64,000 nt of DNA from an uncultured virus (IMG/VR IMGVR_UViG_3300028394_000069) (IMGVR_UViG_3300028394_000069); one strand, 5' to 3'; shown: positions 17,837 to 57,902, numbered from the stretch's first letter. Numbers and translations: made by a program. Notes: generated by a model not told the origin, from the letters alone.

Positions 17837-18838
17837 CTATGATTCACATGAAGAACAATTCAGAATAGATCGAGCTAACTCTTGAGCAGGATTAGCAGAC
17901 CGCTGATAGTAAAGAGACTTAATACCCATCTCGTGAGCAAATAACATAAGCTCATTTACATCTTTAGCTTTTGTAGAAGGAGGAATCATTAAGTTCAACG
18001 ATTGTCCTTGATCGATATATTTCTGTCTCTGAGCAGCTTGAATGATAATCTCTTTTTGAGTTATCTCACTAAAGGTCTTAAAGACGTTTTTTTCATGCTG
18101 AGTTAAGAACTCAAGATGCTGCACACTACCACCTCTAGATAGAATACTCATCCATACATCAGTAGTATCTTTATCTTTTGATTTGAGTAATTTAGCTAAG
18201 TGTGGAGAGCGGAAAGTAAACTTACCTTTAGCTAAGTCTTTTACAAAGTAATTACTATTTAGAGGTTCAATAGAAGGTGAAACTTGACCTAAAATAAATG
18301 AACTAGACGTCGTTGGAGCTACGGCCATTGTAGTTGTATTACGTCTACCATAGCCCTTTAGCAGAGCGGGTTCTCCAAAGAGAGACGCTAAGCTCTCAGT
18401 AGCTCTATCACATTCAGATCTAATAGTAGAGAAGATCTGAACGTTCTCAAGTTTAGCAGCCATAGATTCAAACTCAATATCTTTACTCTGTAAATACGAA
18501 TGCCAGCCAAGAACTCCTAAACCTAATGCTCGTTGATTGACTGCAAATTTATGAGGAGCTTCCATGAACAAGACATCTTTAGTCTTATTAATAAACTCAG
18601 TCATTACTGCATCGAGGAAGTAGATAAGAGTTTGAACCGCGTCAGTTTCTTTAATCTCATCCCATTTCTCAAGATTAATAGAAGATAAATCACATACAAA
18701 GGATTCATCAGCAGAGTTACTTAGGAAGATTTCACTACAGTTATGAACTAGAATTTTATTAGCGAAAAAATTTGCTACTTTAGATACAGTAATATCATAA
18801 ACCGGCTCTACTTTTTTATATCTCTTTATTTTTATCAT
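17837..18838 (-). CDS. nrdA: NrdA C-terminal half fused to a 33-aa C-intein
   Basis: MIKIK...VYDITV...NFFAN.ILVHN|CSEI, then CDLSSIN, AVAPTTSSS, DQGQSLNL and KSLYY. Confidence 0.93.
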   Translation of the reverse strand: MIKIKRYKKVEPVYDITVSKVANFFANKILVHNCSEIFLSNSADESFVCDLSSINLEKWDEIKETDAVQTLIYFLDAVMTEFINKTKDVLFMEAPHKFAVNQRALGLGVLGWHSYLQSKDIEFESMAAKLENVQIFSTIRSECDRATESLASLFGEPALLKGYGRRNTTTMAVAPTTSSSFILGQVSPSIEPLNSNYFVKDLAKGKFTFRSPHLAKLLKSKDKDTTDVWMSILSRGGSVQHLEFLTQHEKNVFKTFSEITQKEIIIQAAQRQKYIDQGQSLNLMIPPSTKAKDVNELMLFAHEMGIKSLYYQRSANPAQELARSILNCSSCES

Positions 18839-18860
18839 ATAATTTTTTATCTGTTTAGTA

Positions 18861-19676
18861 TTATTTATTTGGTAGTTGTTCTTCAACGGCTGCATAAAAC
18901 CCTCGCTTACCTAAGCCATTGAATCTACACTTAGCGAGACCCTTTAACCACCTAAAATTTCTAAGTTCTGCAAGTTTAATTATACTTGGCCATGTTGGTA
19001 TATATCCAAACTCAATATATAATTCTATACCCCTTTTAATAAAATAATCATCTGTTAATCCAGAGTAATTATTGTTTTTATTACCTGATCCCATTTTGCT
19101 TCTCATTTGTTTTTCTACATTAGATATTTTTCGACCCTTTGTGTGGTGTACCCATTGACCTGAGAGAACATTAGGATGTGTTGTAGGTACAGATCCTATT
19201 ATAGTATTAGTATGAATATCCTTAACAACAATTGTACCTTTCCTTGCTGCTGAAATGCGATTCCTACCTTCTGAAGTCTGCCAGCCTTCTGTTTTTCTTA
19301 AATATGTTGAATGTGATTTTAACCACGCGTAACCCATTCTTATTTTTTTGTTTAAAATAAACTTAAACTTACCTTTTACATTATTACCGTTATTATAACC
19401 ATTCAATGTAAATCTTACTGCGAGCATATCTTCTCGTTTTCTGTATATTTTATACCTTAACATGTGTAAGAAAATATGCTCCTCAGGAAGTACAGCAACG
19501 AGATTGTATAGCTCATCTATACCGCCTAACGATCTAGGAATTATATGATGAACTTCTTGATATATTGCAGTCTTCATTAGTCTCTGATCATTAGGATTGC
19601 GTATAGTTAACCTTTCTCTAGGTGTAGATTTCTGTATATAAGTAATAAAGTTATCGTGTATTTGTTTATAATTCAT
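18861..19676 (-). CDS. HNH homing endonuclease between the nrdA halves
   Basis: EVHHIIPRSLGG.D...NLV....EEH...H motif with a NUMOD-like C-terminus. Confidence 0.88.
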   Translation of the reverse strand: MNYKQIHDNFITYIQKSTPRERLTIRNPNDQRLMKTAIYQEVHHIIPRSLGGIDELYNLVAVLPEEHIFLHMLRYKIYRKREDMLAVRFTLNGYNNGNNVKGKFKFILNKKIRMGYAWLKSHSTYLRKTEGWQTSEGRNRISAARKGTIVVKDIHTNTIIGSVPTTHPNVLSGQWVHHTKGRKISNVEKQMRSKMGSGNKNNNYSGLTDDYFIKRGIELYIEFGYIPTWPSIIKLAELRNFRWLKGLAKCRFNGLGKRGFYAAVEEQLPNK

Positions 19677-19733: not shown

Positions 19734-20801
19734 TTATTCAGGAGTAATTACAAGAATATCATCCTCCTTTAATTCCTGAGCTTGCACATACCCTCTATTT
19801 TTTGTATATATCTGATGTTCTGGAGTACATTTAATGATGTTACCCTGCTCATCTTCAATTTCTATAATTTCGGAAGATTCACCTGTTTGAGCAAAAGCTT
19901 CAATAGTTGAGTATACTTCTTGATCTGTTTTAACATCATACGACTTAACTTTTACTTCAGAGTATTTCTTTAAGTAATAATTAAGGCTATCAATTGGCAC
20001 TTCAAGATATTCGTTCTCATTAACTAAAATACTAATAATAGTGTCTCCTGTGACACATAAATTACTCGCGTTGATTTTTAAACCCTTATCTTTATAAACT
20101 TGAGGAGCTTGATTATTAGCATTATCTGTAAAGAAGACATAAGGGTATCCTGTCTCAAAACGCTTTTGAATTACTTTGCCCCATATTTTACGTTTATGCT
20201 TATCACCAGCTTTCATATCAGCTAGCCATTCATCTGTTACACATACTCCAAAGGAAACGTCTTGAATACTATTACCAGCGCTTTTAATCTCTAAGAACTC
20301 TTCAATATCTCCATGATCAACAGGTAGATAAGCAGCAAAGGATCCTCGTCTAACATTACTTTGAGAGACATAACTAATAAGAGAGTTGAATACAGTAAGT
20401 TGATGATGCACTCCCGTAGCACTACCTCCATCACTAATAGGAGCACCTCGCTTACGTACTTCACCAAAATATGCAGAAGTACCACCTCCTACCTTAGACA
20501 TAGTACCTACTTCGCTAACTTTATAGAGAATCTTCTCCATATCGTCAGGAATATAGCTACCAAAACAAGAGATAGGTAAGCCTCTATCTCTACCAAAATT
20601 AGACCAGATAGGAGAAGATAGAGAATAGAACCCATGTGCCATGTAGGTCATAAACTTCAATGCGAAGCCTTCAATATTTAAATATCGTTCAGCAGCATTA
20701 GCTATATCTGAGATTCTTTCTTCAGGAGTCTCACCTACCTTTAGATAACCACGTTCAAGAAATTTACGAGAGTCTGCATTAAGCCATTCATATGATAACA
20801 T
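19734..20801 (-). CDS. nrdA: NrdA N-terminal half fused to a 107-aa N-intein
   Basis: SSPIWSN, PISCF, GGGT and RRGSFAAYL motifs; ASNL|CVTGDT starts the intein at 20057; block B CTPEH. Confidence 0.93.
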   Translation of the reverse strand: MLSYEWLNADSRKFLERGYLKVGETPEERISDIANAAERYLNIEGFALKFMTYMAHGFYSLSSPIWSNFGRDRGLPISCFGSYIPDDMEKILYKVSEVGTMSKVGGGTSAYFGEVRKRGAPISDGGSATGVHHQLTVFNSLISYVSQSNVRRGSFAAYLPVDHGDIEEFLEIKSAGNSIQDVSFGVCVTDEWLADMKAGDKHKRKIWGKVIQKRFETGYPYVFFTDNANNQAPQVYKDKGLKINASNLCVTGDTIISILVNENEYLEVPIDSLNYYLKKYSEVKVKSYDVKTDQEVYSTIEAFAQTGESSEIIEIEDEQGNIIKCTPEHQIYTKNRGYVQAQELKEDDILVITPE

Positions 20802-37296: not shown

Positions 37297-37330
37297 TTTC
37301 CTACAACCAATTATATCGGAGTTCGTTTGA
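37297..37330 (-). promoter_or_regulatory. Representative copy of the GAACT-N4-TATAAT promoter with GTAGGAAAGA leader
   Basis: Minus strand AAACGAACTCCGATATAATTGGTTGTAGGAAAG; about 30 related copies sit upstream of minus-strand genes. Confidence 0.85.
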
Positions 37331-37333
37331 AAT

Positions 37334-37408
37334 TGGTTGCAGAGGTTGGGTTTGAACCAACGACCTTCAGGTTATGAGCCTGCTGAGCTACCACTGCTCC
37401 ACTCTGCA
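37334..37408 (-). tRNA. tRNA-Met(CAT), initiator-like
   Basis: Cloverleaf with CTCATAA loop, A11:T24 pair and encoded CCA. Confidence 0.9.
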
Positions 37409-37449
37409 AAAATTAAAGCAGTTTACTGACTTGCTCAGGTCCCTCGCTG

Positions 37450-37854
37450 CTACTCAGCGATCGCAAGCTCTTCCACCTCAGCCTCAGCGGACCACTCTCC
37501 TTCAGGTTCGACCGCTTCGACTACCTCTACCACTTTAGCTTTGCGAGCCTTCTTAACCTTTACTGCCACTACAGGCACCTCTGCAGCTTCTTCCTTCTGC
37601 AGCATCTCTTTGACCAACTCTTTCGCGCGAACCTTTGCTGCGGCTTTGAGCTCTTTCGAACGTTCACGATATCCGCGAGTGAACTCTTGCTGATCTTTCA
37701 CCAATTGTTCTAACTCTTCGCGATGCTTGCTTGCGAGATTAAACATTGCAGTCATCAGCTCCTTATCCGAGCTCTTCAGCTCTTCGCGCAGCGCAGTAAA
37801 GTCAGCACGCACTTCGGAGGTTGCAACGATGGTTTGGAAGGTATACTTAGTCAT
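37450..37854 (-). CDS. Hypothetical early protein with a K/A/E-rich tail
   Basis: Has its own promoter cassette with a (TCAAA)n leader. Confidence 0.7.
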   Translation of the reverse strand: MTKYTFQTIVATSEVRADFTALREELKSSDKELMTAMFNLASKHREELEQLVKDQQEFTRGYRERSKELKAAAKVRAKELVKEMLQKEEAAEVPVVAVKVKKARKAKVVEVVEAVEPEGEWSAEAEVEELAIAE

Positions 37855-37946
37855 TTTGATTTGAGTTTTGATTTGATTTGATTTGATTTGATTTGATTTG
37901 ATCTTTCCTACACTATTATTATATCGGAGTTCGTTTTGCTGATCGC

Positions 37947-38153
37947 TCAGCCAATTTCAACGCCATATGGATCTTGAGTATAATCATCTATTCCAAATTG
38001 CACTAGGCCGCCTTCCACCTTATACGGCCATTCTGGCGTAACTGAGTTCACAGGCTCAGATCCACCTTCAGCAAGATCTTTATAATATACCGTTAGATTG
38101 CCGTGATCGGCTTTAATTTTTTCCAGCTTTTCGATGAGTTCGGTGATAAACAT
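37947..38153 (-). CDS. Hypothetical early protein
   Basis: Has its own promoter cassette. Confidence 0.65.
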   Translation of the reverse strand: MFITELIEKLEKIKADHGNLTVYYKDLAEGGSEPVNSVTPEWPYKVEGGLVQFGIDDYTQDPYGVEIG

Positions 38154-38192
38154 TTTGATTTAATTCTTTCCTACAACTAATTATATCGGAGT

Positions 38193-38408
38193 TCATTCTG
38201 CAGGAGGAGCTTCTGGGAGCGGCATCCAGTGAGTTGCGGTGCCGTCTATCTCGTCTCCGCTGGTTGCGATCCATTCCTGATATTGTTTGCAGAATTGAGC
38301 AGTCAGCACTTGAGTGAAGACGCGAGACTTAACAGAACGGTACTTTACAGTTAGAAGAATTTCAGTACCCTCTTTTGGAGCTGTTTCAATTGGTTGCCAG
38401 TTTGTCAT
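38193..38408 (-). CDS. DUF551-like protein
   Basis: WQPIETAPK.G...THWMPLPEAP. Confidence 0.8.
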   Translation of the reverse strand: MTNWQPIETAPKEGTEILLTVKYRSVKSRVFTQVLTAQFCKQYQEWIATSGDEIDGTATHWMPLPEAPPAE

Positions 38409-38465
38409 TTTGATTTGATTTAATTTAATTCTTTCCTACAACTAATTATATCGGAGTTCGTTTTG

Positions 38466-38747
38466 CTAGCTGTTGAAAGATCGATCACGGGGCATGCTGA
38501 AGAGCATACCTGCTGCAGTTTTCAGCCTCTTCTCAGCAGGATTTATGTCCCCATAAGAGTCCATCTCGCATGCTGCGTAATCCGCGCGCGCGTTTTCATA
38601 CGCGGCAATACTTGCATGCCGCCGTTCTAACTCTACATTGAGTCGATAAATTTCTTCTTTGAGGCCTTCATAGGCGCTGCGATAATTGTAATACAGTTCA
38701 TCAGCGTCGGCGAGAGTAAGCTCATTAGAGTTGTCTTCTGGATACAT
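38466..38747 (-). CDS. Hypothetical early protein
   Basis: Has its own promoter cassette. Confidence 0.65.
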   Translation of the reverse strand: MYPEDNSNELTLADADELYYNYRSAYEGLKEEIYRLNVELERRHASIAAYENARADYAACEMDSYGDINPAEKRLKTAAGMLFSMPRDRSFNS

Positions 38748-38774
38748 TTTGATTTGATTTGATCTTTCCTACAA

Positions 38775-39065
38775 CTAATTATATCGGAGTTCGTTTTGCT
38801 CATCGATCATCGCATTCCATTCTTCAACGGTGACAGCTTTGCCATCTGTCATATTACCAGACACCAGCTCATCGAGATAGCAGCTCGTGTAGAGTTCAGC
38901 CTCTTGATCCGATGCTCGATCTATCTCACGCTTGCTTTGAATCGTCCGATTATTCTCACAGTAAGAACAAGACCCATGATTGCGGCAAGTATGATCCACG
39001 CGCTTGCTCCCTCGATAAGGCTTGCGTTTCTCTTTCCGATATTCGATTGCTTTTTCTAGACTCAT
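38775..39065 (-). CDS. Hypothetical protein with a CRNHG.C.YC motif
   Basis: Has its own promoter cassette; Cys/His cluster. Confidence 0.7.
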   Translation of the reverse strand: MSLEKAIEYRKEKRKPYRGSKRVDHTCRNHGSCSYCENNRTIQSKREIDRASDQEAELYTSCYLDELVSGNMTDGKAVTVEEWNAMIDEQNELRYN

Positions 39066-39129
39066 TTGATTAGATTCTTTCTACACTATAATTATATCGG
39101 AGTTCGTTTGAGAGAGTCAAGTCTCGATA

Positions 39130-39615
39130 CTATTCGTGTTTTTGTAGCACGTTATTCAGCCACCAAGACTTCTCACCGCCGCAGCCTTCAATTGCAGGAC
39201 CATCAAGTCGATGACGCTTACCATGCTTGTACCAAGCTTTATAGCCTGTCGAATATTCCATCGCAGGACCATCCTCACGATGCAACCTTCCTTCTAGATA
39301 CCACTCGCCGTACTCTTTACCATCATCACCTAGAGGCCATAGTACTGCAGGTCCATCTACACGATGCAAGTTACCATCGATCCACCACTCTTTATAACCT
39401 GTAGAATATTCAACCGCTGGACCATTCTCGCGATGGAGTCTGCCATTCACCCACCACTGACTATCGCCATTAGTAAACTCAATCGCAGGACCATCTTCTC
39501 GATGCAGCTTGCCATCTTCTCTGAGCCATTGCTTATCGCCCCAACGATTAACTTTAACAGTTGCCGTATTTTTGACAGTACTATTAACTTGAGGAGTTTC
39601 TTGAATCGAGTCCAT
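39130..39615 (-). CDS. LHREDGPA-repeat protein
   Basis: Five 22-26-aa W..G.LHR.DGPA repeats. Confidence 0.85.
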   Translation of the reverse strand: MDSIQETPQVNSTVKNTATVKVNRWGDKQWLREDGKLHREDGPAIEFTNGDSQWWVNGRLHRENGPAVEYSTGYKEWWIDGNLHRVDGPAVLWPLGDDGKEYGEWYLEGRLHREDGPAMEYSTGYKAWYKHGKRHRLDGPAIEGCGGEKSWWLNNVLQKHE

Positions 39616-39678
39616 TTGATTATTGATTAGTTATTATTGCCGACATCTAATTATATCGGAGTTCGTTTTGAAAAGTAA

Positions 39679-39733
39679 TATCACTTCAGCCAAGCTCTCA
39701 GACGCAGGAGCCTCTGGCTCGACTGAAGCGATA
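39679..39733 (-). ncRNA. Candidate structured RNA hairpin
   Basis: 17-bp stem with G-U pairs that form only on the minus strand, capped by CAGAGGCTCCTGCGTCTG. Confidence 0.45.
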
Positions 39734-39777
39734 TACTTGAGTAGTTTAATGACATACTCAGGTCATTTTATATTTAA

Positions 39778-40023
39778 CTAATTCCAAATAAGTTCATGAT
39801 CGACATAAGACAAATTAAGTTCGTATCGAAGATTTACGTACTCAATAATATTCTCTATGTCTTTCAAACTCAAATCACAAACGTCATCTTCTCGCAAATT
39901 TCCCGCTTTGAAGAGATCATCAATATCGGACTTCTCTGCGATAAACTTTTCCATCAAATCGTCGTCATCGAACATCAAATCGATTCCCTCAAGACTATCG
40001 CAAATTTCTTTTAACGTTTTCAT
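39778..40023 (-). CDS. Acidic hypothetical protein
   Basis: Has its own promoter cassette. Confidence 0.65.
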   Translation of the reverse strand: MKTLKEICDSLEGIDLMFDDDDLMEKFIAEKSDIDDLFKAGNLREDDVCDLSLKDIENIIEYVNLRYELNLSYVDHELIWN

Positions 40024-40087
40024 TTTAATTATTTGGTTTATTATTCTTTCCTACAACTAATTATATCGGAGTTCGTTTTGAGATTAA

Positions 40088-40159
40088 TCGCAGAGGTTGG
40101 ATTCGAACCAACTTATCAGAAGCTTGAGCCTCTGGGAGCTACCATCGCCCCGCTCTGCC
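40088..40159 (-). tRNA. Atypical tRNA-like element related to the tRNA-fMet, with a non-canonical anticodon arm
   Basis: Acceptor core GCAGAG/CTCTGC and T stem GTTGG/CCAAC identical to 37334-37408; anticodon arm CAGAGG-CTCAAG-CTTCTG; own promoter. Confidence 0.65.
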
Positions 40160-40165
40160 TTATTA

Positions 40166-40600
40166 TTATAGCGGAGTTCGTTTCGATTCTCTCTGAGAGA
40201 GGATTGACATTTCGTTCCTATCTTTAATAATCGCGTTGACTTTTTCGAGGCATCGGCGCAAGGCAAGATCTCTGCCGTGCTTTTTAACGAACTGATCTTT
40301 GATACTGCACTCAGCGACTCCGATTGTCTCTTCCCAGCTGCCGGGCCAGCCTAGAGTGATTTCGACTTTGCCTCCTCGAGCTGTAGGCTGCTCTCGAAAG
40401 GTTCGGCGCTTAGTTGAGGCAACCATCGTATCGCCATCGTTAGATAACGGCCGACGCTTACGAGCAGCAGACCATTTCATATCGTAAGTAGATCTGAGAC
40501 CGCAAGGAAAGTCTGAGCTGTAGCGGTAGTAGTGACAACGAACGGACCAGCCGTCTAGACGGAGTTGGTGAATAGTAGAGTTAAGTGGTAGTGTATTCAT
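40166..40600 (-). CDS. Hypothetical protein
   Basis: ARGGK...G.A.CS..DQF.K..GR.LAL motif common in phage proteins. Confidence 0.7.
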   Translation of the reverse strand: MNTLPLNSTIHQLRLDGWSVRCHYYRYSSDFPCGLRSTYDMKWSAARKRRPLSNDGDTMVASTKRRTFREQPTARGGKVEITLGWPGSWEETIGVAECSIKDQFVKKHGRDLALRRCLEKVNAIIKDRNEMSILSQRESKRTPL

Positions 40601-40780
40601 TAGATAGTATAGTTTAGAGGCCTCGTGGAAACATTATCATCAAGTTCATTAAGACAGTAGCAATAAAAACGACCCAGCCTATGATACCAGCTACAATCAG
40701 TACTAACGTGATTAGCGAGTTCGGTATTTTCTTGTTACAAATGCGCATATGAGTTCGTTTATATTATGAGTTCGTTTATA

Positions 40781-41071
40781 TTATGAGTTCGTTTGTAGCG
40801 GCAGTTCGTTTGAAATGAAATTATTGTACGTTTCAAACGCCTGTTCGTATGCTTCGAGCGCTTCTTGGTATAGAGTTCGTTCCGTTTCAACTTTCTTTTC
40901 GATATCCGATAGCTTAACGAGCAGTTCCTTTTGAGTAGTTCCATCGGCTGCAGCAAGTTCGGTCTGAATCGTAACGGCTTTACTCTGGATATCTACAAAA
41001 GTTCGTAAATAATACATCTTGATTTCGGCGAGATGAAGCATGATCTGAGTAAGAATAGTAATTTTGTCCAT
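40781..41071 (-). CDS. Hypothetical coiled-coil protein
   Basis: Promoter copy at ~41085-41100. Confidence 0.6.
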   Translation of the reverse strand: MDKITILTQIMLHLAEIKMYYLRTFVDIQSKAVTIQTELAAADGTTQKELLVKLSDIEKKVETERTLYQEALEAYEQAFETYNNFISNELPLQTNS

Positions 41072-41110
41072 TGTTTATAAGTATATTATATTAGAGTTCG
41101 TTTTAAAAAG

Positions 41111-41182
41111 TAGATCCACTTGGAATCGAACCAAGATAAAAAGCTTAGAAGGCTCTTGTCTTATCCATTAGACGATAGATCT
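41111..41182 (-). tRNA. tRNA-Arg(TCT)
   Basis: Cloverleaf with AGATCTA/TGGATCT acceptor and CTTCTAA loop. Confidence 0.85.
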
Positions 41183-41290
41183 GTGAGAAGTTTATTAAAT
41201 TATTGAGCAGTTTAGTTCCTCGTCAATGGACAAGGTTATCGACTTGCTCAGGTCGGCAGCGGGCATGCCCGAAATTTTCTGTTGATGTTT

Positions 41291-41866
41291 GTCTCCCGGG
41301 GCAAAAAGTTGGGAGTTTTTGCCCGTGGGGAGACTCTTAGGGACTTAACGAGTTATAGACTTTGGTTACGATTTAGATTGAAAAAAGGGAGACTCGGTTG
41401 TCTCCCCGGGCAAAAAACCTTAACTTCTTGCCTGTGGGGAGACTCTTAGGGACTTAACGAGTTATAGACTTTGGTTACTCGAGTCAGTATCGAGAGGTGG
41501 TTTGAAGTAGTAATATTCGACAAGTCCGCGCACTTCACTAATCAGCTCTTCATCAGTCGCAGATTGGCCATCCTCACCGAAAACCAGTTCACGTAGGGTC
41601 GCGAGGGTCAGTCCTCTTGACTCATTAAGAGCTAGATTGGCAATAGTTAGCCCTTTTTCAGCAGCGAGGGCTTCATAATCTGATTCAGTAAGTGTGTCTT
41701 TCATATTATTATTATATCGGAGTTCGTTTAAAAGCAGAATCTCTGTAGGCGTTGCAGTTGTTGAGTTGACTTATTCTGTTGATGTTTGTCTCCCCAGGCA
41801 AAAAACTCTTAACTTTTTGCCTGTGGGGAGACTCTTAGGGACTTAACGAGTTAGAGGATCTGGTTA
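41291..41866. repeat. Three copies of a ~78-bp hairpin-plus-tail element (41291-41369, 41400-41478, 41788-41866)
   Basis: gtctccc..ggcaaaaa...ttgcc.gtggggagac followed by tcttagggacttaacgagtta. Confidence 0.9.
41462..41704 (-). CDS. Hypothetical protein, paralog of 41864-42208
   Basis: Shared LT...Y..LAA..GLTL.TL.E.V.G....DE.LI pattern. Confidence 0.7.
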   Translation of the reverse strand: MKDTLTESDYEALAAEKGLTIANLALNESRGLTLATLRELVFGEDGQSATDEELISEVRGLVEYYYFKPPLDTDSSNQSL

Positions 41867-56342: not shown

Positions 56343-56634
56343 TGGTGCGGATGAGAGGACTCGAACCTCCAAATCAATTGATGACAGATTTTCTTACCAC
56401 TATAGCTTTCGCTACCATATCTGTTTGTGGTCTGGACTATACCTTAATCTTAGTATTACTACCTTAGATTCTCGCCGTCTAGTCTCTACACCTTCAAAGA
56501 TATTTCTATCTTAGCTTGGCTCGGTATTGGCATTTTAAAGCGTTCACCGAATTTGACGAGTTCTACTCCTGTCGTTTCCAACAAGGCACTCAATTTCTAC
56601 AAGTCTGTTGTGTTTACCATTTCACCACATCCGC
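56343..56634 (-). tRNA. tRNA-Leu(TAA) with an intron (exons 56634-56601 and 56392-56343)
   Basis: Splicing at T|AA restores ACAGA-CTTAAAA-TCTGT; CCA encoded. Confidence 0.92.
56393..56600 (-). ncRNA. Group I intron (208 nt, no ORF) in the tRNA-Leu anticodon
   Basis: 5' exon ends in U and the intron ends in G; core motifs AAATTCGGTGAA, AATACCGAGC, GTAGAGACTA and AAGGTATAGTCC. Confidence 0.9.
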
Positions 56635-57830: not shown

Positions 57831-57902
57831 AGGCTCGTGAGTGACTTGAACACTCCTCGTCGGATTACAAAACCGATGCATCGTCATCTATGCTTACGAG
57901 CC
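57831..57902 (-). tRNA. tRNA-Thr(TGT), atypical D-arm
   Basis: GGCTCGT/ACGAGCC acceptor, TTTGTAA loop, A8, and no GG in the D-loop. Confidence 0.7.

Follow-up and report, generated by a model that had tools for sequence, protein, structure and literature searches.

The window analysed here is the whole 64,000-nt stretch of DNA from an uncultured virus (IMG/VR IMGVR_UViG_3300028394_000069), and the question it raises is what three small repeated elements on its minus strand are and what they do. The sequence-only reading had described them as copies of a small H-type pseudoknot with covariation, each just 5' of a structured RNA, and had named a processing signal, a nuclease-blocking element or a small ribozyme as candidate functions. 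All three copies were located on the minus strand where they had been placed, in gaps separating early genes of what is a freshwater phage, and their number exceeds expectation: GACCTGAGYAWGTC has three exact occurrences in the window (0.70 expected with up to 2 mismatches allowed), and the gapped pattern CCTGAGNNNGTC-N(1-31)-AAACT was found three times against 0.02 expected, a count reached in 0 of 100 shuffles. The elements and their downstream neighbours are as follows (S, stem; L, loop).

37442-37416, minus strand: pseudoknot copy 1, matched by covariance model R1 at 27.6 bits (E 3.9e-05)
37442-37439 / 37430-37427, minus strand: copy 1 S1, 3 of 4 pairs formed
37438-37437, minus strand: copy 1 L1, CU
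37436-37432 / 37420-37416, minus strand: copy 1 S2, GAGCA/UGCUU, outer pair G.U
37431 and 37426-37421, minus strand: copy 1 L2 (A) and L3 (GUAAAC)
37408-37334, minus strand: tRNA-Met (CAT), in the same orientation as copy 1 and 7 nt downstream of it
39765-39739, minus strand: pseudoknot copy 2, matched by R1 at 47.2 bits (E 3.3e-11)
39765-39762 / 39753-39750, minus strand: copy 2 S1, UGAC/GUCA
39759-39755 / 39743-39739, minus strand: copy 2 S2, GAGUA/UACUC
39749-39744, minus strand: copy 2 L3, UUAAAC (L1, CU; L2, U)
39737-39674, minus strand: long hairpin directly after copy 2 S2, -44.2 kcal/mol, z -7.39, 0 of 200 shuffles as good
41255-41205, minus strand: pseudoknot copy 3, an insertion splitting the covariance-model match
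41255-41252 / 41243-41240, minus strand: copy 3 S1, CGAC/GUCG
41249-41245 / 41209-41205, minus strand: copy 3 S2, GAGCA/UGCUC
41213-41210, minus strand: conserved AAAC of copy 3 L3, which is 30 nt long with a 7-bp hairpin inserted upstream of the AAAC
41235-41229 / 41224-41218, minus strand: inserted hairpin of copy 3 L3, CCUUGUC/GACGAGG
41182-41110, minus strand: tRNA-Arg (TCT), 22 nt downstream of copy 3 and followed by a promoter-like repeat (41103-41085)

Copy 1 begins 7 nt past the TAG stop (37452-37450) of ORF 37854-37450, no promoter-like repeat lies between this ORF, the knot and tRNA-Met, and one (37328-37310) follows immediately after the tRNA. Copy 2 begins 12 nt past the TAG stop (39780-39778) of ORF 40023-39778; the long hairpin behind it is followed by a U-rich run and then a promoter-like repeat (39668-39650), and is probably the terminator of the transcript of that ORF. 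The two halves of the copy 3 match scored 20.8 bits (41255-41236) and 14.8 bits (41232-41197), and a small hairpin (cgggcaugcccg, 41271-41260) and two terminator-like modules lie 5' of it. Neither tRNA-Met nor tRNA-Arg has a promoter-like repeat of its own and both have a pseudoknot; upstream of them lie ORF 37854-37450 directly (Met) or ORF 41704-41462 and the terminator-like modules (Arg). An odd tRNA at 40159-40088 is without pseudoknot and has its own promoter-like repeat 5 nt upstream. In each window copy a translated early ORF or a leaky terminator lies upstream and a non-coding structured RNA downstream, within one transcription unit. In RNA runs, the region was present as assembled contigs of relatives.

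Across the family, the element is a 27-nt H-type pseudoknot with the consensus nnnC-CU-GAGYA-W-Gnnn-(n>=2)AAAC-URCUC, comprising a 4-bp S1 with an invariant closing C-G, L1 (CU), S2 (GAGYA/URCUC), a single-nucleotide junction and an L3 with AAAC at its end. Covariation was determined in 140 distinct viral sequences, the matches listed for a pattern that leaves stem 1 free. The two middle S1 pairs (9-22 and 10-21) were formed in all 140, with GC, AU, CG and UA each used; the outer pair was formed in 112, and the closing pair was C-G in 140 of 140, its C being fixed by the search pattern and its G free. The S1 covariation score was 0.444 against 0.127 in shuffles (0 of 500 as high), and slid controls gave at most 0.10. 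In S2, pair 10-24 was CG, UG or UA in 89, 32 and 15 of the 140 sequences and unpaired in 4. Over the family as a whole, S2 has double compensatory changes at four of its five pairs. The covariance-model search, which had been suggested as a check, recovered 25 further variants outside the search pattern, with S2 double changes GGGCA/UGCCC, GGACA/UGUCC and AAGCA/UGCUU (three cases of the last, one in Microcystis phage Ma-LMM01) and with AAAC (17), AAAA-GGCUC (6) or AAC (2) as linker.

These data bear out the proposed covariation in both stems, including the AGCA/UGCU versus AGUA/UACU contrast in stem 2, and refine the original description. GAC/GUC is the commonest form of stem 1, whereas its definition is nnnC/Gnnn with 4 bp; the stem-2 pairing is correct, but its length is 5 bp rather than 4; and CUG and AAAC, thought invariant, are near-invariant, since G7 swaps to A with its partner position compensating and an AAAA-GGCUC sub-class exists. 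C5, U6 and A19-C22 are near-invariant and unpaired, and the helix junction is strongly conserved in sequence; the conserved L3 adenines would run along the S1 helix. A knot of 4 + 5 bp is weak thermodynamically. Length variation is confined to L2 and the 5' part of L3, where whole hairpins can be inserted, and the extra L3 length, which ranges from a single nucleotide to a whole hairpin, is always 5' of AAAC. The hairpin of copy 3 is a genuine variable-loop feature; this form recurs in a viral contig (L115) 5' of a tRNA-like sequence, and other members carry insertions in L3 and L2. Loop length varying only at sites that a pseudoknot permits argues against a DNA site or promoter. It is strongly supported that the three window elements are copies, at the RNA level, of one compact H-type pseudoknot whose pairing is backed by covariation.

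The knot was found at no fewer than 121 and 136 loci in the viral-contig scans (at least 121 and at least 136) and at least 121 loci in the bacterial and archaeal genome scan. It is carried by phages and prophages whose hosts span many bacterial groups and a methanogen; among the matches listed, the hosts include Streptococcus, Lactobacillaceae, Saccharibacteria, cyanobacteria, Bacteroidota, Pseudomonadota and Methanobrevibacter, and the contexts are podo-, myo- and siphovirus-type and archaeal, with no shared phage protein evident across them. This very wide host range argues for a function independent of any lineage-specific protein. The Rfam search that had also been suggested gave no family overlapping the three copies, either in the whole window (Rfam 15, gathering score) or at E up to 10 in 37300-41500; hammerhead, twister, pistol, hatchet, HDV-like, preQ1-I/II/III and SAM-II/V were among the families without a match. 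No published description of the pseudoknot in phages was found in the literature.

Near-invariant unpaired C5, U6 and A19-C22 beside covarying stems are also the pattern of a small ribozyme, and the knot might be a self-cleaving ribozyme, or an endonuclease signal (RNase P, E, III), by which polycistronic phage RNA would be cut and tRNAs set free; the intergenic position upstream of tRNAs suits this, and the independence of host type fits self-catalysis by RNA. Such a role is very unlikely, since no Rfam ribozyme family was matched at E up to 10, no known catalytic core is present, RNase P makes tRNA 5' ends anyway, and the coremin comparison given below explains the same conserved nucleotides by folding and not by cleavage. 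The smallest natural self-cleavers known are about twice the 27-nt size. Kienbeck and colleagues reportedly described in 2024 'theta' ribozymes, HDV-like RNAs that neighbour phage tRNAs; these fold as nested double pseudoknots and cleave directly at the tRNA boundary. The present knot shares with them the small pseudoknotted form beside tRNA genes in Caudoviricetes, but it has neither the P3/L3/P1.1 core nor an HDV-family match, and it is always 5' when tRNA-adjacent.

A hairpin, an A-rich tail and a tail-to-loop helix make up the architecture of preQ1-I aptamers, and with its strongly conserved helix junction the knot could by analogy be a binding site for a protein or small ligand, either a translational operator or a smallest riboswitch. 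We regard this as the least probable of the explanations considered. No preQ1 or other riboswitch family was matched in Rfam, the knot overlaps neither the Shine-Dalgarno nor the start of the downstream gene (median distance to the start 37 nt), the genes that follow it have no function in common (scaffold, integrase, anti-restriction, PhoH, thymidylate synthase, tRNAs and many of unknown function), and no shared phage protein is evident.

The genomic placement of the knot, which sits in intergenic RNA, was also determined. Most instances precede ordinary protein genes. A tRNA lies within 100 nt downstream in 23 of the 274 listed instances (18 of them at 4-14 nt) and precedes the knot in none of the 274. 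A hairpin starting 0-3 nt after S2 is present in 49 of 269 instances, no more often than at a control site 50 nt further along (80 of 269), and the mean MFE after S2 is -2.2 versus -2.8 kcal/mol at the control site. The position just 5' of a structured RNA is hence a property of the three window copies, where tRNA-Met, the hairpin and tRNA-Arg all follow as described, but not of the family.

Counted from the upstream stop, the position of stem 1 shows an abrupt onset at 5 nt. Shorter distances were found in only 9 of 230 instances, followed by 37 at 5 nt, 22 at 6 nt, 11 at 7 nt, 18 at 8 nt and 13 at 9 nt (101 at 5-9 nt). A terminating ribosome covers about that 5-nt length of mRNA downstream of its A site. 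The spacing fits a structure that needs to stay folded beside ribosomes, and is equally compatible with a 3'-UTR role for the upstream gene. It also suggests that the knot could act on ribosomes rather than nucleases at the exit of the upstream ORF, by stopping sliding or read-on ribosomes, uncoupling the next cistron or tRNA, or tuning re-initiation, a reading in keeping with the 105 of 167 well-flanked instances that have an ORF end no more than 30 nt upstream and with the reported block of scanning ribosomes and stimulation of frameshifting by coremin. We judge it unlikely, since no ORF ends within 30 nt upstream in the other 62 of 167, terminator-like hairpins precede window copy 3, scanning from a cap is foreign to bacterial ribosomes and programmed recoding is excluded.

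Recoding was assessed in its own right. Luteovirus/polerovirus-type -1 frameshifting knots such as that of BWYV are minimal H-type pseudoknots of less than 30 nt with an A-rich L3 in the S1 minor groove; they share with the phage knot a two-nucleotide L1 whose first base is C, a 1-nt junction and the A-rich L3. In contrast to them, the phage knot lies after stop codons, outside overlapping ORFs and without an extended alternative frame. A role as -1 programmed frameshift stimulator was rejected, an in-frame slippery heptamer X XXY YYZ 5-9 nt upstream being present in 0 of 103 instances, and so was recoding in general, with median -1, +1 and read-through extensions of only 8, 4 and 8 codons.

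A median of 11 nt separates the knot from the upstream stop, less than the 37 nt to the downstream start. In 25 of the 167 well-flanked instances an ORF lies upstream while no gene is in reach downstream, and copy 2, placed after a stop codon and before a probable terminator, has no gene behind it to protect. On these grounds the knot could stop Rho moving 5'-to-3' once the ribosome leaves, suppressing polarity on untranslated tRNA segments, or it could be a 3'-UTR cap that shields the upstream message from 3'-to-5' exonucleases once RNase P or a terminator has made its end. Both are decidedly unlikely in our estimation, given that 45 of 167 instances have a downstream gene only and that known xrRNA-type knots are directional against attack from the 5' side. 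The knot is moreover present in Methanobrevibacter contigs, and archaea are not known to have Rho.

The phage knot closely resembles coremin / xrRNA_C of eukaryotic RNA viruses in the closing C-G, the loop ends and the AAACURC linker (2019, PMC6546385; 2023, PMC10520033; the Watson-Crick form xrRNA_WCC, PMC10321173). Plant and fungal RNA viruses use the coremin knot to stop an RNA-degrading enzyme, and it stalls Xrn1 and scanning ribosomes and stimulates -1 frameshifting. Its first hairpin (hp1) has 3-5 bp and a C-G closing pair, U-A being tolerated and G-C inactive (PMC6546385); S1 of the phage form is likewise a short 5' hairpin, C-G closed in 140 of 140. In the coremin linker G-U-U-A-A-A-C-U-A-C, A16-A20 are essential and insertions are tolerated at the 5' end only (PMC6546385). 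Both linkers end in AAACU(A/G)C, with the three A, C and U essential in coremin, and in the phage form too length changes occur only at the linker 5' end. Both loops start with C and end in A-(A/U), loop-to-linker pairing gives an H-type knot in both, and both lie in 3' UTRs and intergenic regions, at times in tandem (for the phage form, viral contig L018). Coremin is active with loops of 6, 7 or 8 nt, CGAGUAA and CGCAAAGC among them, and the first of these, a heptaloop, is one U apart from the phage loop CUGAGUAA.

There are also clear differences. The coremin loop consensus is YGAD or YGNNAD (Y first, G second, A-D last), and the loop CCGAAA with G third is inactive, whereas the 8-nt phage loop C-U-G-A-G-Y-A-W has U second and G third and so departs from this consensus. 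The phage S2 has 5 canonical pairs, in a register shifted by one, versus 0-3 in coremin, and its hp1 has 4 bp versus 3. Xrn1 resistance of coremin needs a second hairpin (hp2, at least 4 bp) directly 3' of the linker, although in the Watson-Crick form with canonical S2 hp2 is dispensable for frameshift stimulation (PMC10321173). The phage form has no obligatory hp2, as the hairpin counts after S2 indicate; among the window copies only copy 2 has a hairpin directly after S2, in the position of the second coremin hairpin. The phage form occurs in dsDNA phages and in prophages from bacterial hosts and one archaeal host, all without Xrn1, and PMC10321173 makes no mention of bacteria, phages or prokaryotes. 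Flaviviral xrRNA halts unrelated 5'-to-3' exonucleases including bacterial RNase J1, independently of protein (MacFadden et al. 2018, PMC5760640), indicating that xrRNA blocks are not enzyme-specific. The likeness of the phage knot to flavivirus class 1 xrRNA is one of proposed working principle; the latter is a ring-like three-way junction of about 70 nt with no sequence or secondary-structure likeness.

Of the three functions first proposed, the literature comparison favours the nuclease-blocking element, through the resemblance to coremin/xrRNA_C. The explanation we lean to, tentatively and at a little under an even chance, is that the knot may be a directional roadblock, working without protein, to machines that degrade RNA or translocate along it 5'-to-3'. 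From its fold, conservation, genomic placement and resemblance to coremin, which were observed, we infer both the blocking and the machines concerned. A machine threading single-stranded RNA from the 5' side could hardly unravel the knot; candidates would be the 5'-to-3' exonuclease RNase J and 5'-end-dependent scanning RNase E, possibly also the ribosome or Rho. The downstream RNA (tRNA precursor, next cistron or terminator hairpin) would then outlast the decay of the upstream message and acquire a defined 5' boundary. Not every host offers RNase J: its family (TIGR00649) scored above cut-off in 7 of 10 pseudoknot-bearing genomes and just below it in Brucella, and was absent in Accumulibacter and Segatella copri; since 8 of 14 control genomes also have it, RNase J is not enriched with the pseudoknot.

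A more doubtful, though possible, extension of the roadblock reading is that the knot would be the first xrRNA-type element of the prokaryotic virosphere, a coremin-like knot directed against RNase J and 5'-end-dependent RNase E. It would then serve tailed phages and archaeal viruses in every major host phylum, carving long-lived RNAs (tRNA precursors, capsid-gene messages, small ncRNAs) from short-lived transcripts. Small non-coding decay products would parallel flaviviral sfRNA or BNYVV ncRNA3, and the knot would be a universal solution needing no protein, one that viruses of all three domains have either found or shared.

Whatever its function, the knot is among the most widespread structured phage RNA motifs missing from Rfam 15, and its near-identity to coremin raises the question of convergence versus common origin. 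If it blocks 5'-to-3' decay, it would represent a general, so far unrecognised layer of phage gene expression, in which segment-wise RNA stability is set by a 27-nt module working in any host, and the xrRNA concept, drawn from eukaryotic RNA viruses, would reach bacteria and archaea. Bacterial synthetic biology would also gain a very small, portable part for stabilising RNA, and the knot could explain the co-transcription of some phage tRNAs and late messages with unstable early messages.

Three copies of a small H-type pseudoknot (the knot) are present on the minus strand of the window and each is followed by a structured RNA, as the sequence-only reading had claimed; that observation stands, given the copies themselves, the match statistics and the adjoining tRNAs and hairpin. 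Common to all of them is the sequence GACCUGAG(C/U)A(A/U)GUC ... AAACU(G/A)CU. The gapped whole motif occurred three times in the window against 0.02 expected occurrences, and its ungapped half had three exact occurrences against 0.7 expected by chance even with two mismatches.

Copies of the knot in the window and the structured RNA 3' of each
37442-37416, minus strand: knot copy 1; tRNA-Met(CAT) 7 nt downstream (ARAGORN and Rfam)
39765-39739, minus strand: knot copy 2; 64-nt hairpin directly downstream
41255-41205, minus strand: knot copy 3, with a 7-bp hairpin within its long loop; tRNA-Arg(UCU) 22 nt downstream (ARAGORN and Rfam)

The hairpin in copy 3 is the insertion that had been noticed in one copy. 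An alternative hairpin, CUGA/UCAG in copy 1, was rejected since other members of the motif do not keep it.

The source is a large freshwater phage, the window being part of its genome, and matches to PHROGs in the window included a major head protein, ribonucleotide reductase, RNA ligase and GTP cyclohydrolase. The ribonucleotide reductase is split by homing endonucleases (PHROGs); its large subunit lies in two minus-strand ORFs (19737-20801 and 17840-18895) with a homing-endonuclease ORF (18864-19676) in between, an interruption that could be of the intein or intron type. The nearest record, G001, a 36.7-kb fragment rated 17% complete, is near-identical to the window here and carries the same three copies, and no named phage matched the 4.2-kb region by megablast. 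RNA runs sharing words with the region came from lake and freshwater samples, and two metatranscriptome runs contained 12% and 5% of its sampled words as assembled contigs of relatives, 90-99% alike; RNA starts and ends are not visible in such assemblies. In freshwater metatranscriptome contigs, likeness to the window broke at the knot-tRNA junction (37409 / 37416): one contig kept the upstream ORF and knot 1, but the tRNA that begins 8 nt beyond the knot is not the one in the window, and in a second contig, which kept the tRNA-Met, the place of the knot is taken by the 3' end of some other tRNA. The breaks in these sequences suggest that the boundaries of the knot/tRNA modules are recombination points.

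The genes around the knot copies are small and form a minus-strand block, and almost all of them have the repeat AAACGAACUCCGAUAUAAU (also written AAACGAACTCCGATATAAT) on their 5' side. With up to 3 mismatches allowed, this repeat matched 31 times where 0.05 matches were expected (37310-63760, minus strand); it combines a -10-like TATAAT with a conserved upstream AAACGAACTCCG in place of a -35 element and is probably an early promoter of the phage. Each knot lies within a unit bounded by two such repeats.

Units containing the knot copies (minus strand, 5' to 3')
Unit 1: promoter-like repeat, ORF 37854-37450, knot copy 1, tRNA-Met, next promoter-like repeat
Unit 2: promoter-like repeat, ORF 40023-39778, knot copy 2, long hairpin and U-run, next promoter-like repeat
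Unit 3: promoter-like repeat, ORF 41704-41462, two terminator-like modules, knot copy 3, tRNA-Arg, next promoter-like repeat

The modules of unit 3 (41290-41480, minus strand) are tandem, about 100 nt each (...GTAACCAAAGTCTATAACTCGTTAAGTCCCTAAGAGTCTCCCC...), with a GC-rich hairpin at the end of each, one of which scored as terminator-like (41407-41386, then TTTTTT). The 5' leader of ORF 37854-37450 is a run of CAAAT repeats (caaatcaaatcaaat...; 37870-37915, minus strand), and shorter versions precede several genes near this ORF. A tRNA-like gene (40159-40088, minus strand) lacks a knot and has a promoter-like repeat of its own, 5 nt away on the 5' side; ARAGORN called it tRNA-??? with a two-base 'anticodon' (ca), its Rfam tRNA score of 25.8 bits is under the gathering score of 29, and the gene may encode a degenerate tRNA or one with an unusual loop. 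In a tRNA-rich block between tRNA-Ser (55801-55715) and tRNA-Ile (57820-57746), Rfam found a Group I intron (RF00028, 58.3 bits) at 56413-56610 (minus strand). A further Rfam tRNA of 48.6 bits (57831-57902, minus strand), absent from the ARAGORN list, adjoins tRNA-Ile.

The covarying H-type fold that had been proposed from the three copies was borne out in the wider alignment. A scan leaving stem 1 free yielded 146 distinct sequences, of which 140 were aligned, giving the consensus nnnC-CU-GAGYA-W-Gnnn-nn-AAAC-URCUC, so that a canonical member is 27 nt long. In stem 1 (nnnC/Gnnn), the three outer pairs covaried freely: the middle two were paired in 140/140 sequences with all four Watson-Crick types in use, the outer one was paired in 112, and the closing pair was C-G throughout, with the G left free by the pattern. 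The covariation score of stem 1 was 0.444 against 0.127 in shuffles (0/500 as high), and partners slid by 1-3 columns scored at most 0.10. Stem 2 (GAGYA/URCUC) is mostly fixed by the search pattern, so a covariance model was built to look beyond it and was run on the window together with 962 kb of viral flanking sequence, and on 437 kb of genomic loci. Both stems formed in all 25 matches outside the pattern, stem 1 with 3-4 of its four pairs and stem 2 with 4-5 of its five, and these matches added double-sided changes at three further pairs of stem 2 (GGGCA/UGCCC, GGACA/UGUCC and AAGCA/UGCUU, the last found three times, once in Ma-LMM01). Together with pair 10-24 (CG, UG and UA in 89, 32 and 15 of the 140 sequences, 4 unpaired), four of the five pairs of stem 2 covary. 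Insertions, from extra nucleotides to entire hairpins, were confined to the second loop and the 5' part of the third, the loop ending in AAAC.

This pattern of conservation fits an RNA pseudoknot. A protein-coding stretch does not fit covarying stems and loop-confined insertions, and a DNA operator or other DNA-level site, or a phage-polymerase promoter of fixed spacing, was ruled out because the conserved halves lie at varying distances from each other, 5 nt to at least 40 nt, and the stems covary. A tRNA-like acceptor mimic was also rejected, no ACCA-type signal being found 3' of stem 2, where only a C at +1 (86%, partly forced by one search pattern) and an A at +2 (56%) stood out. In one viral contig (L018, about 301-450), about four units resembling the knot follow one another in tandem, some with changed stem 2 letters (e.g., AGACA ... 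UAUCC); tandem copies are also described for coremin, the Xrn1-stalling knot of plant and fungal RNA viruses, in the available part of PMC6546385. In a sub-class of six cases on four contigs, all of which have canonical copies too, AAAA-GGCUC replaces AAAC-UGCUC, and stem 2 is then GAGC/GCUC with A.G at the junction end.

Cases of the AAAA-GGCUC sub-class (viral contig: coordinates)
L186: 12192-12233 and 12388-12429
L163: 10178-10219 and 10528-10569
L184: 2947-2967
L131: 11196-11216

The family to which the motif belongs is very large. With the strict pattern, no fewer than 121 loci were found in IMG/VR and, likewise, at least 121 in bacterial and archaeal genomes (one per species), and the stem-1-free pattern gave 136 or more loci in IMG/VR. 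Among the matches listed, hosts included Streptococcus, many Lactobacillaceae, Weissella, Saccharibacteria and other CPR bacteria, the cyanobacterial names Calothrix, Nostoc and Cuspidothrix, Methanobrevibacter, and members of Bacteroidota, Planctomycetota, Omnitrophota, Chloroflexota, Actinomycetota and several Pseudomonadota. Among cultured phages, a copy is present in Microcystis phage Ma-LMM01 and in its MaMV relatives, where it lies between gp061 and gp060 in a spacer with no annotation. A BLAST search of 5,426 E. coli genomes with a 41-nt query, which detects only copies with a near-identical stem, gave no match. In sampled genomes (centre genomes not counted) the pattern was present in 1/400 of a Pseudomonadota-type phylum and 2/150 of a Bacillota-type phylum, numbers too few to compare for host bias. 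No Rfam family matched the three copies at the gathering score, nor did any when hits of E up to 10 were allowed. That result and the absence of a known core make it very unlikely that the knot is a self-cleaving or nuclease-recognition signal.

Placement was analyzed for 274 distinct instances together with their flanking sequence. From the end of the nearest upstream ORF on the same strand to stem 1 the median distance was 11 nt, and from stem 2 to the start of the next ORF it was 37 nt. A role as a barrier to Rho, or as a stabilizer of the 3' end of the upstream message, is quite improbable in our estimate. The distance from the upstream stop codon to stem 1 has a step at 5 nt, with shorter distances in only 9/230 instances and with 37, 22, 11, 18 and 13 instances at 5, 6, 7, 8 and 9 nt, respectively. 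A ribosome with a stop codon in its A site covers mRNA downstream of it, and by this geometry the step could reflect genome compaction pushing the knot to the last position that such a ribosome does not unwind. The step would suit a knot acting as an insulator on the ribosome side, but 62 of the 167 instances with at least 400 nt on each side had no ORF just upstream (neighbors on both sides in 80, downstream only in 45, upstream only in 25, neither in 17), and we consider that role unlikely. Recoding by frameshift or read-through was rejected, with slippery sites in 0/103 and short extensions.

A tRNA started within 100 nt downstream of the knot in 23/274 instances (18 at 4-14 nt, 14 of them tRNA-Asp), and none of the 274 had a tRNA ending within 100 nt upstream. 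Of 129 distinct downstream proteins, 108 were scanned against PHROGs (21 from short loci were omitted), and most had no match; the remainder included head scaffolding proteins (13, in Lactobacillaceae-type prophages), integrases (4), anti-restriction proteins (3) and, once each, a terminase, PhoH, thymidylate synthase, a Mom-like protein and an ATPase. A binding site for a protein or ligand is most improbable, since the downstream genes are unrelated and ribosome-binding sites are not overlapped by the knot. In Lactobacillaceae prophage loci (L210, L212, L309, L318, L374 and others), a further conserved stretch (...UUUUGUAUGCC...GAGAGGYGAACUCGUAUAAAACRUGU...) lies between the knot and the head-scaffolding gene, and its sequence may represent a second RNA element.

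The closest known structure is coremin. As described in the available parts of the coremin papers, it has three parts: a hairpin of 3 bp with the loop YGAD, whose closing pair is C-G (U-A is tolerated, G-C is inactive); a linker of 10 nt, G12-U-U-A-A-A-C-U-A-C21, for which A16-A20 are indispensable and which accepts insertions at its 5' end only; and a second hairpin (PMC6546385). Loops of 6, 7 and 8 nt are likewise Xrn1-resistant, with the consensus YGNNAD, the heptaloop CGAGUAA being active and CCGAAA inactive (PMC10520033). The phage knot resembles coremin in its C-G closure, a loop that begins with C and ends with A-(A/U), and an AAACU(A/G)C linker with length freedom on the 5' side only, and its loop CUGAGUAA is one U apart from CGAGUAA. 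It differs in having U, not G, at loop position 2, five canonical pairs in the second stem and no regular second hairpin, and in being carried by DNA phages; on these four points it falls outside coremin by strict criteria while being a close structural relative, a likeness that may reflect either common descent or convergence. The second hairpin was rejected as a family feature, a hairpin following stem 2 in 49/269 instances against 80/269 at the control site. A 'Watson-Crick' form of coremin with a canonical loop-to-linker helix, in which the second hairpin is dispensable for frameshift stimulation, is described in the available part of PMC10321173.

Directional blocking of 5'-to-3' exonucleolytic decay, or of 5'-end-dependent scanning, is the reading we favor by analogy, tentatively and at a little short of an even chance. 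The knot would halt a 5'-to-3' exonuclease or a 5'-end-dependent scanning enzyme with no protein needed, and the RNA 3' of it would outlive decay of the upstream message. In the source parts available, coremin and other xrRNAs are directional blocks independent of protein, and a flaviviral xrRNA stops even bacterial RNase J1 (PMC5760640); the coremin motif also blocks scanning ribosomes (PMC10520033) and stimulates -1 frameshifting (PMC10321173). The blocking reading fits the indifference to host phylum and the lack of a shared partner gene, as well as the position of the knot, always 5' of tRNAs and at the point where a translated segment gives way to the next stretch of RNA. Against it count the short stems and the missing second hairpin, which coremin needs for Xrn1 resistance. 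A link to RNase J was rejected: the model TIGR00649 scored above its cut-off in 7/10 knot-bearing and 8/14 control genomes, so that its presence does not discriminate; among the knot-bearing genomes, Brucella scored just below the cut-off and TIGR00649 found none in Accumulibacter and Segatella copri.

Full-text literature searches and the available parts of the coremin papers (PMC6546385, PMC10520033 and PMC10321173) contained no description of the motif in phages or prokaryotes; a catalogue of 10,006 viral candidate RNAs, judged from the accessible part of PMC10690425, may have it among its unnamed candidates. As far as these searches reach, the phage knot would be a variant of the coremin-type fold that is new for phages, of interest for the breadth of the family, its tiny size and the cross-domain parallel to coremin.
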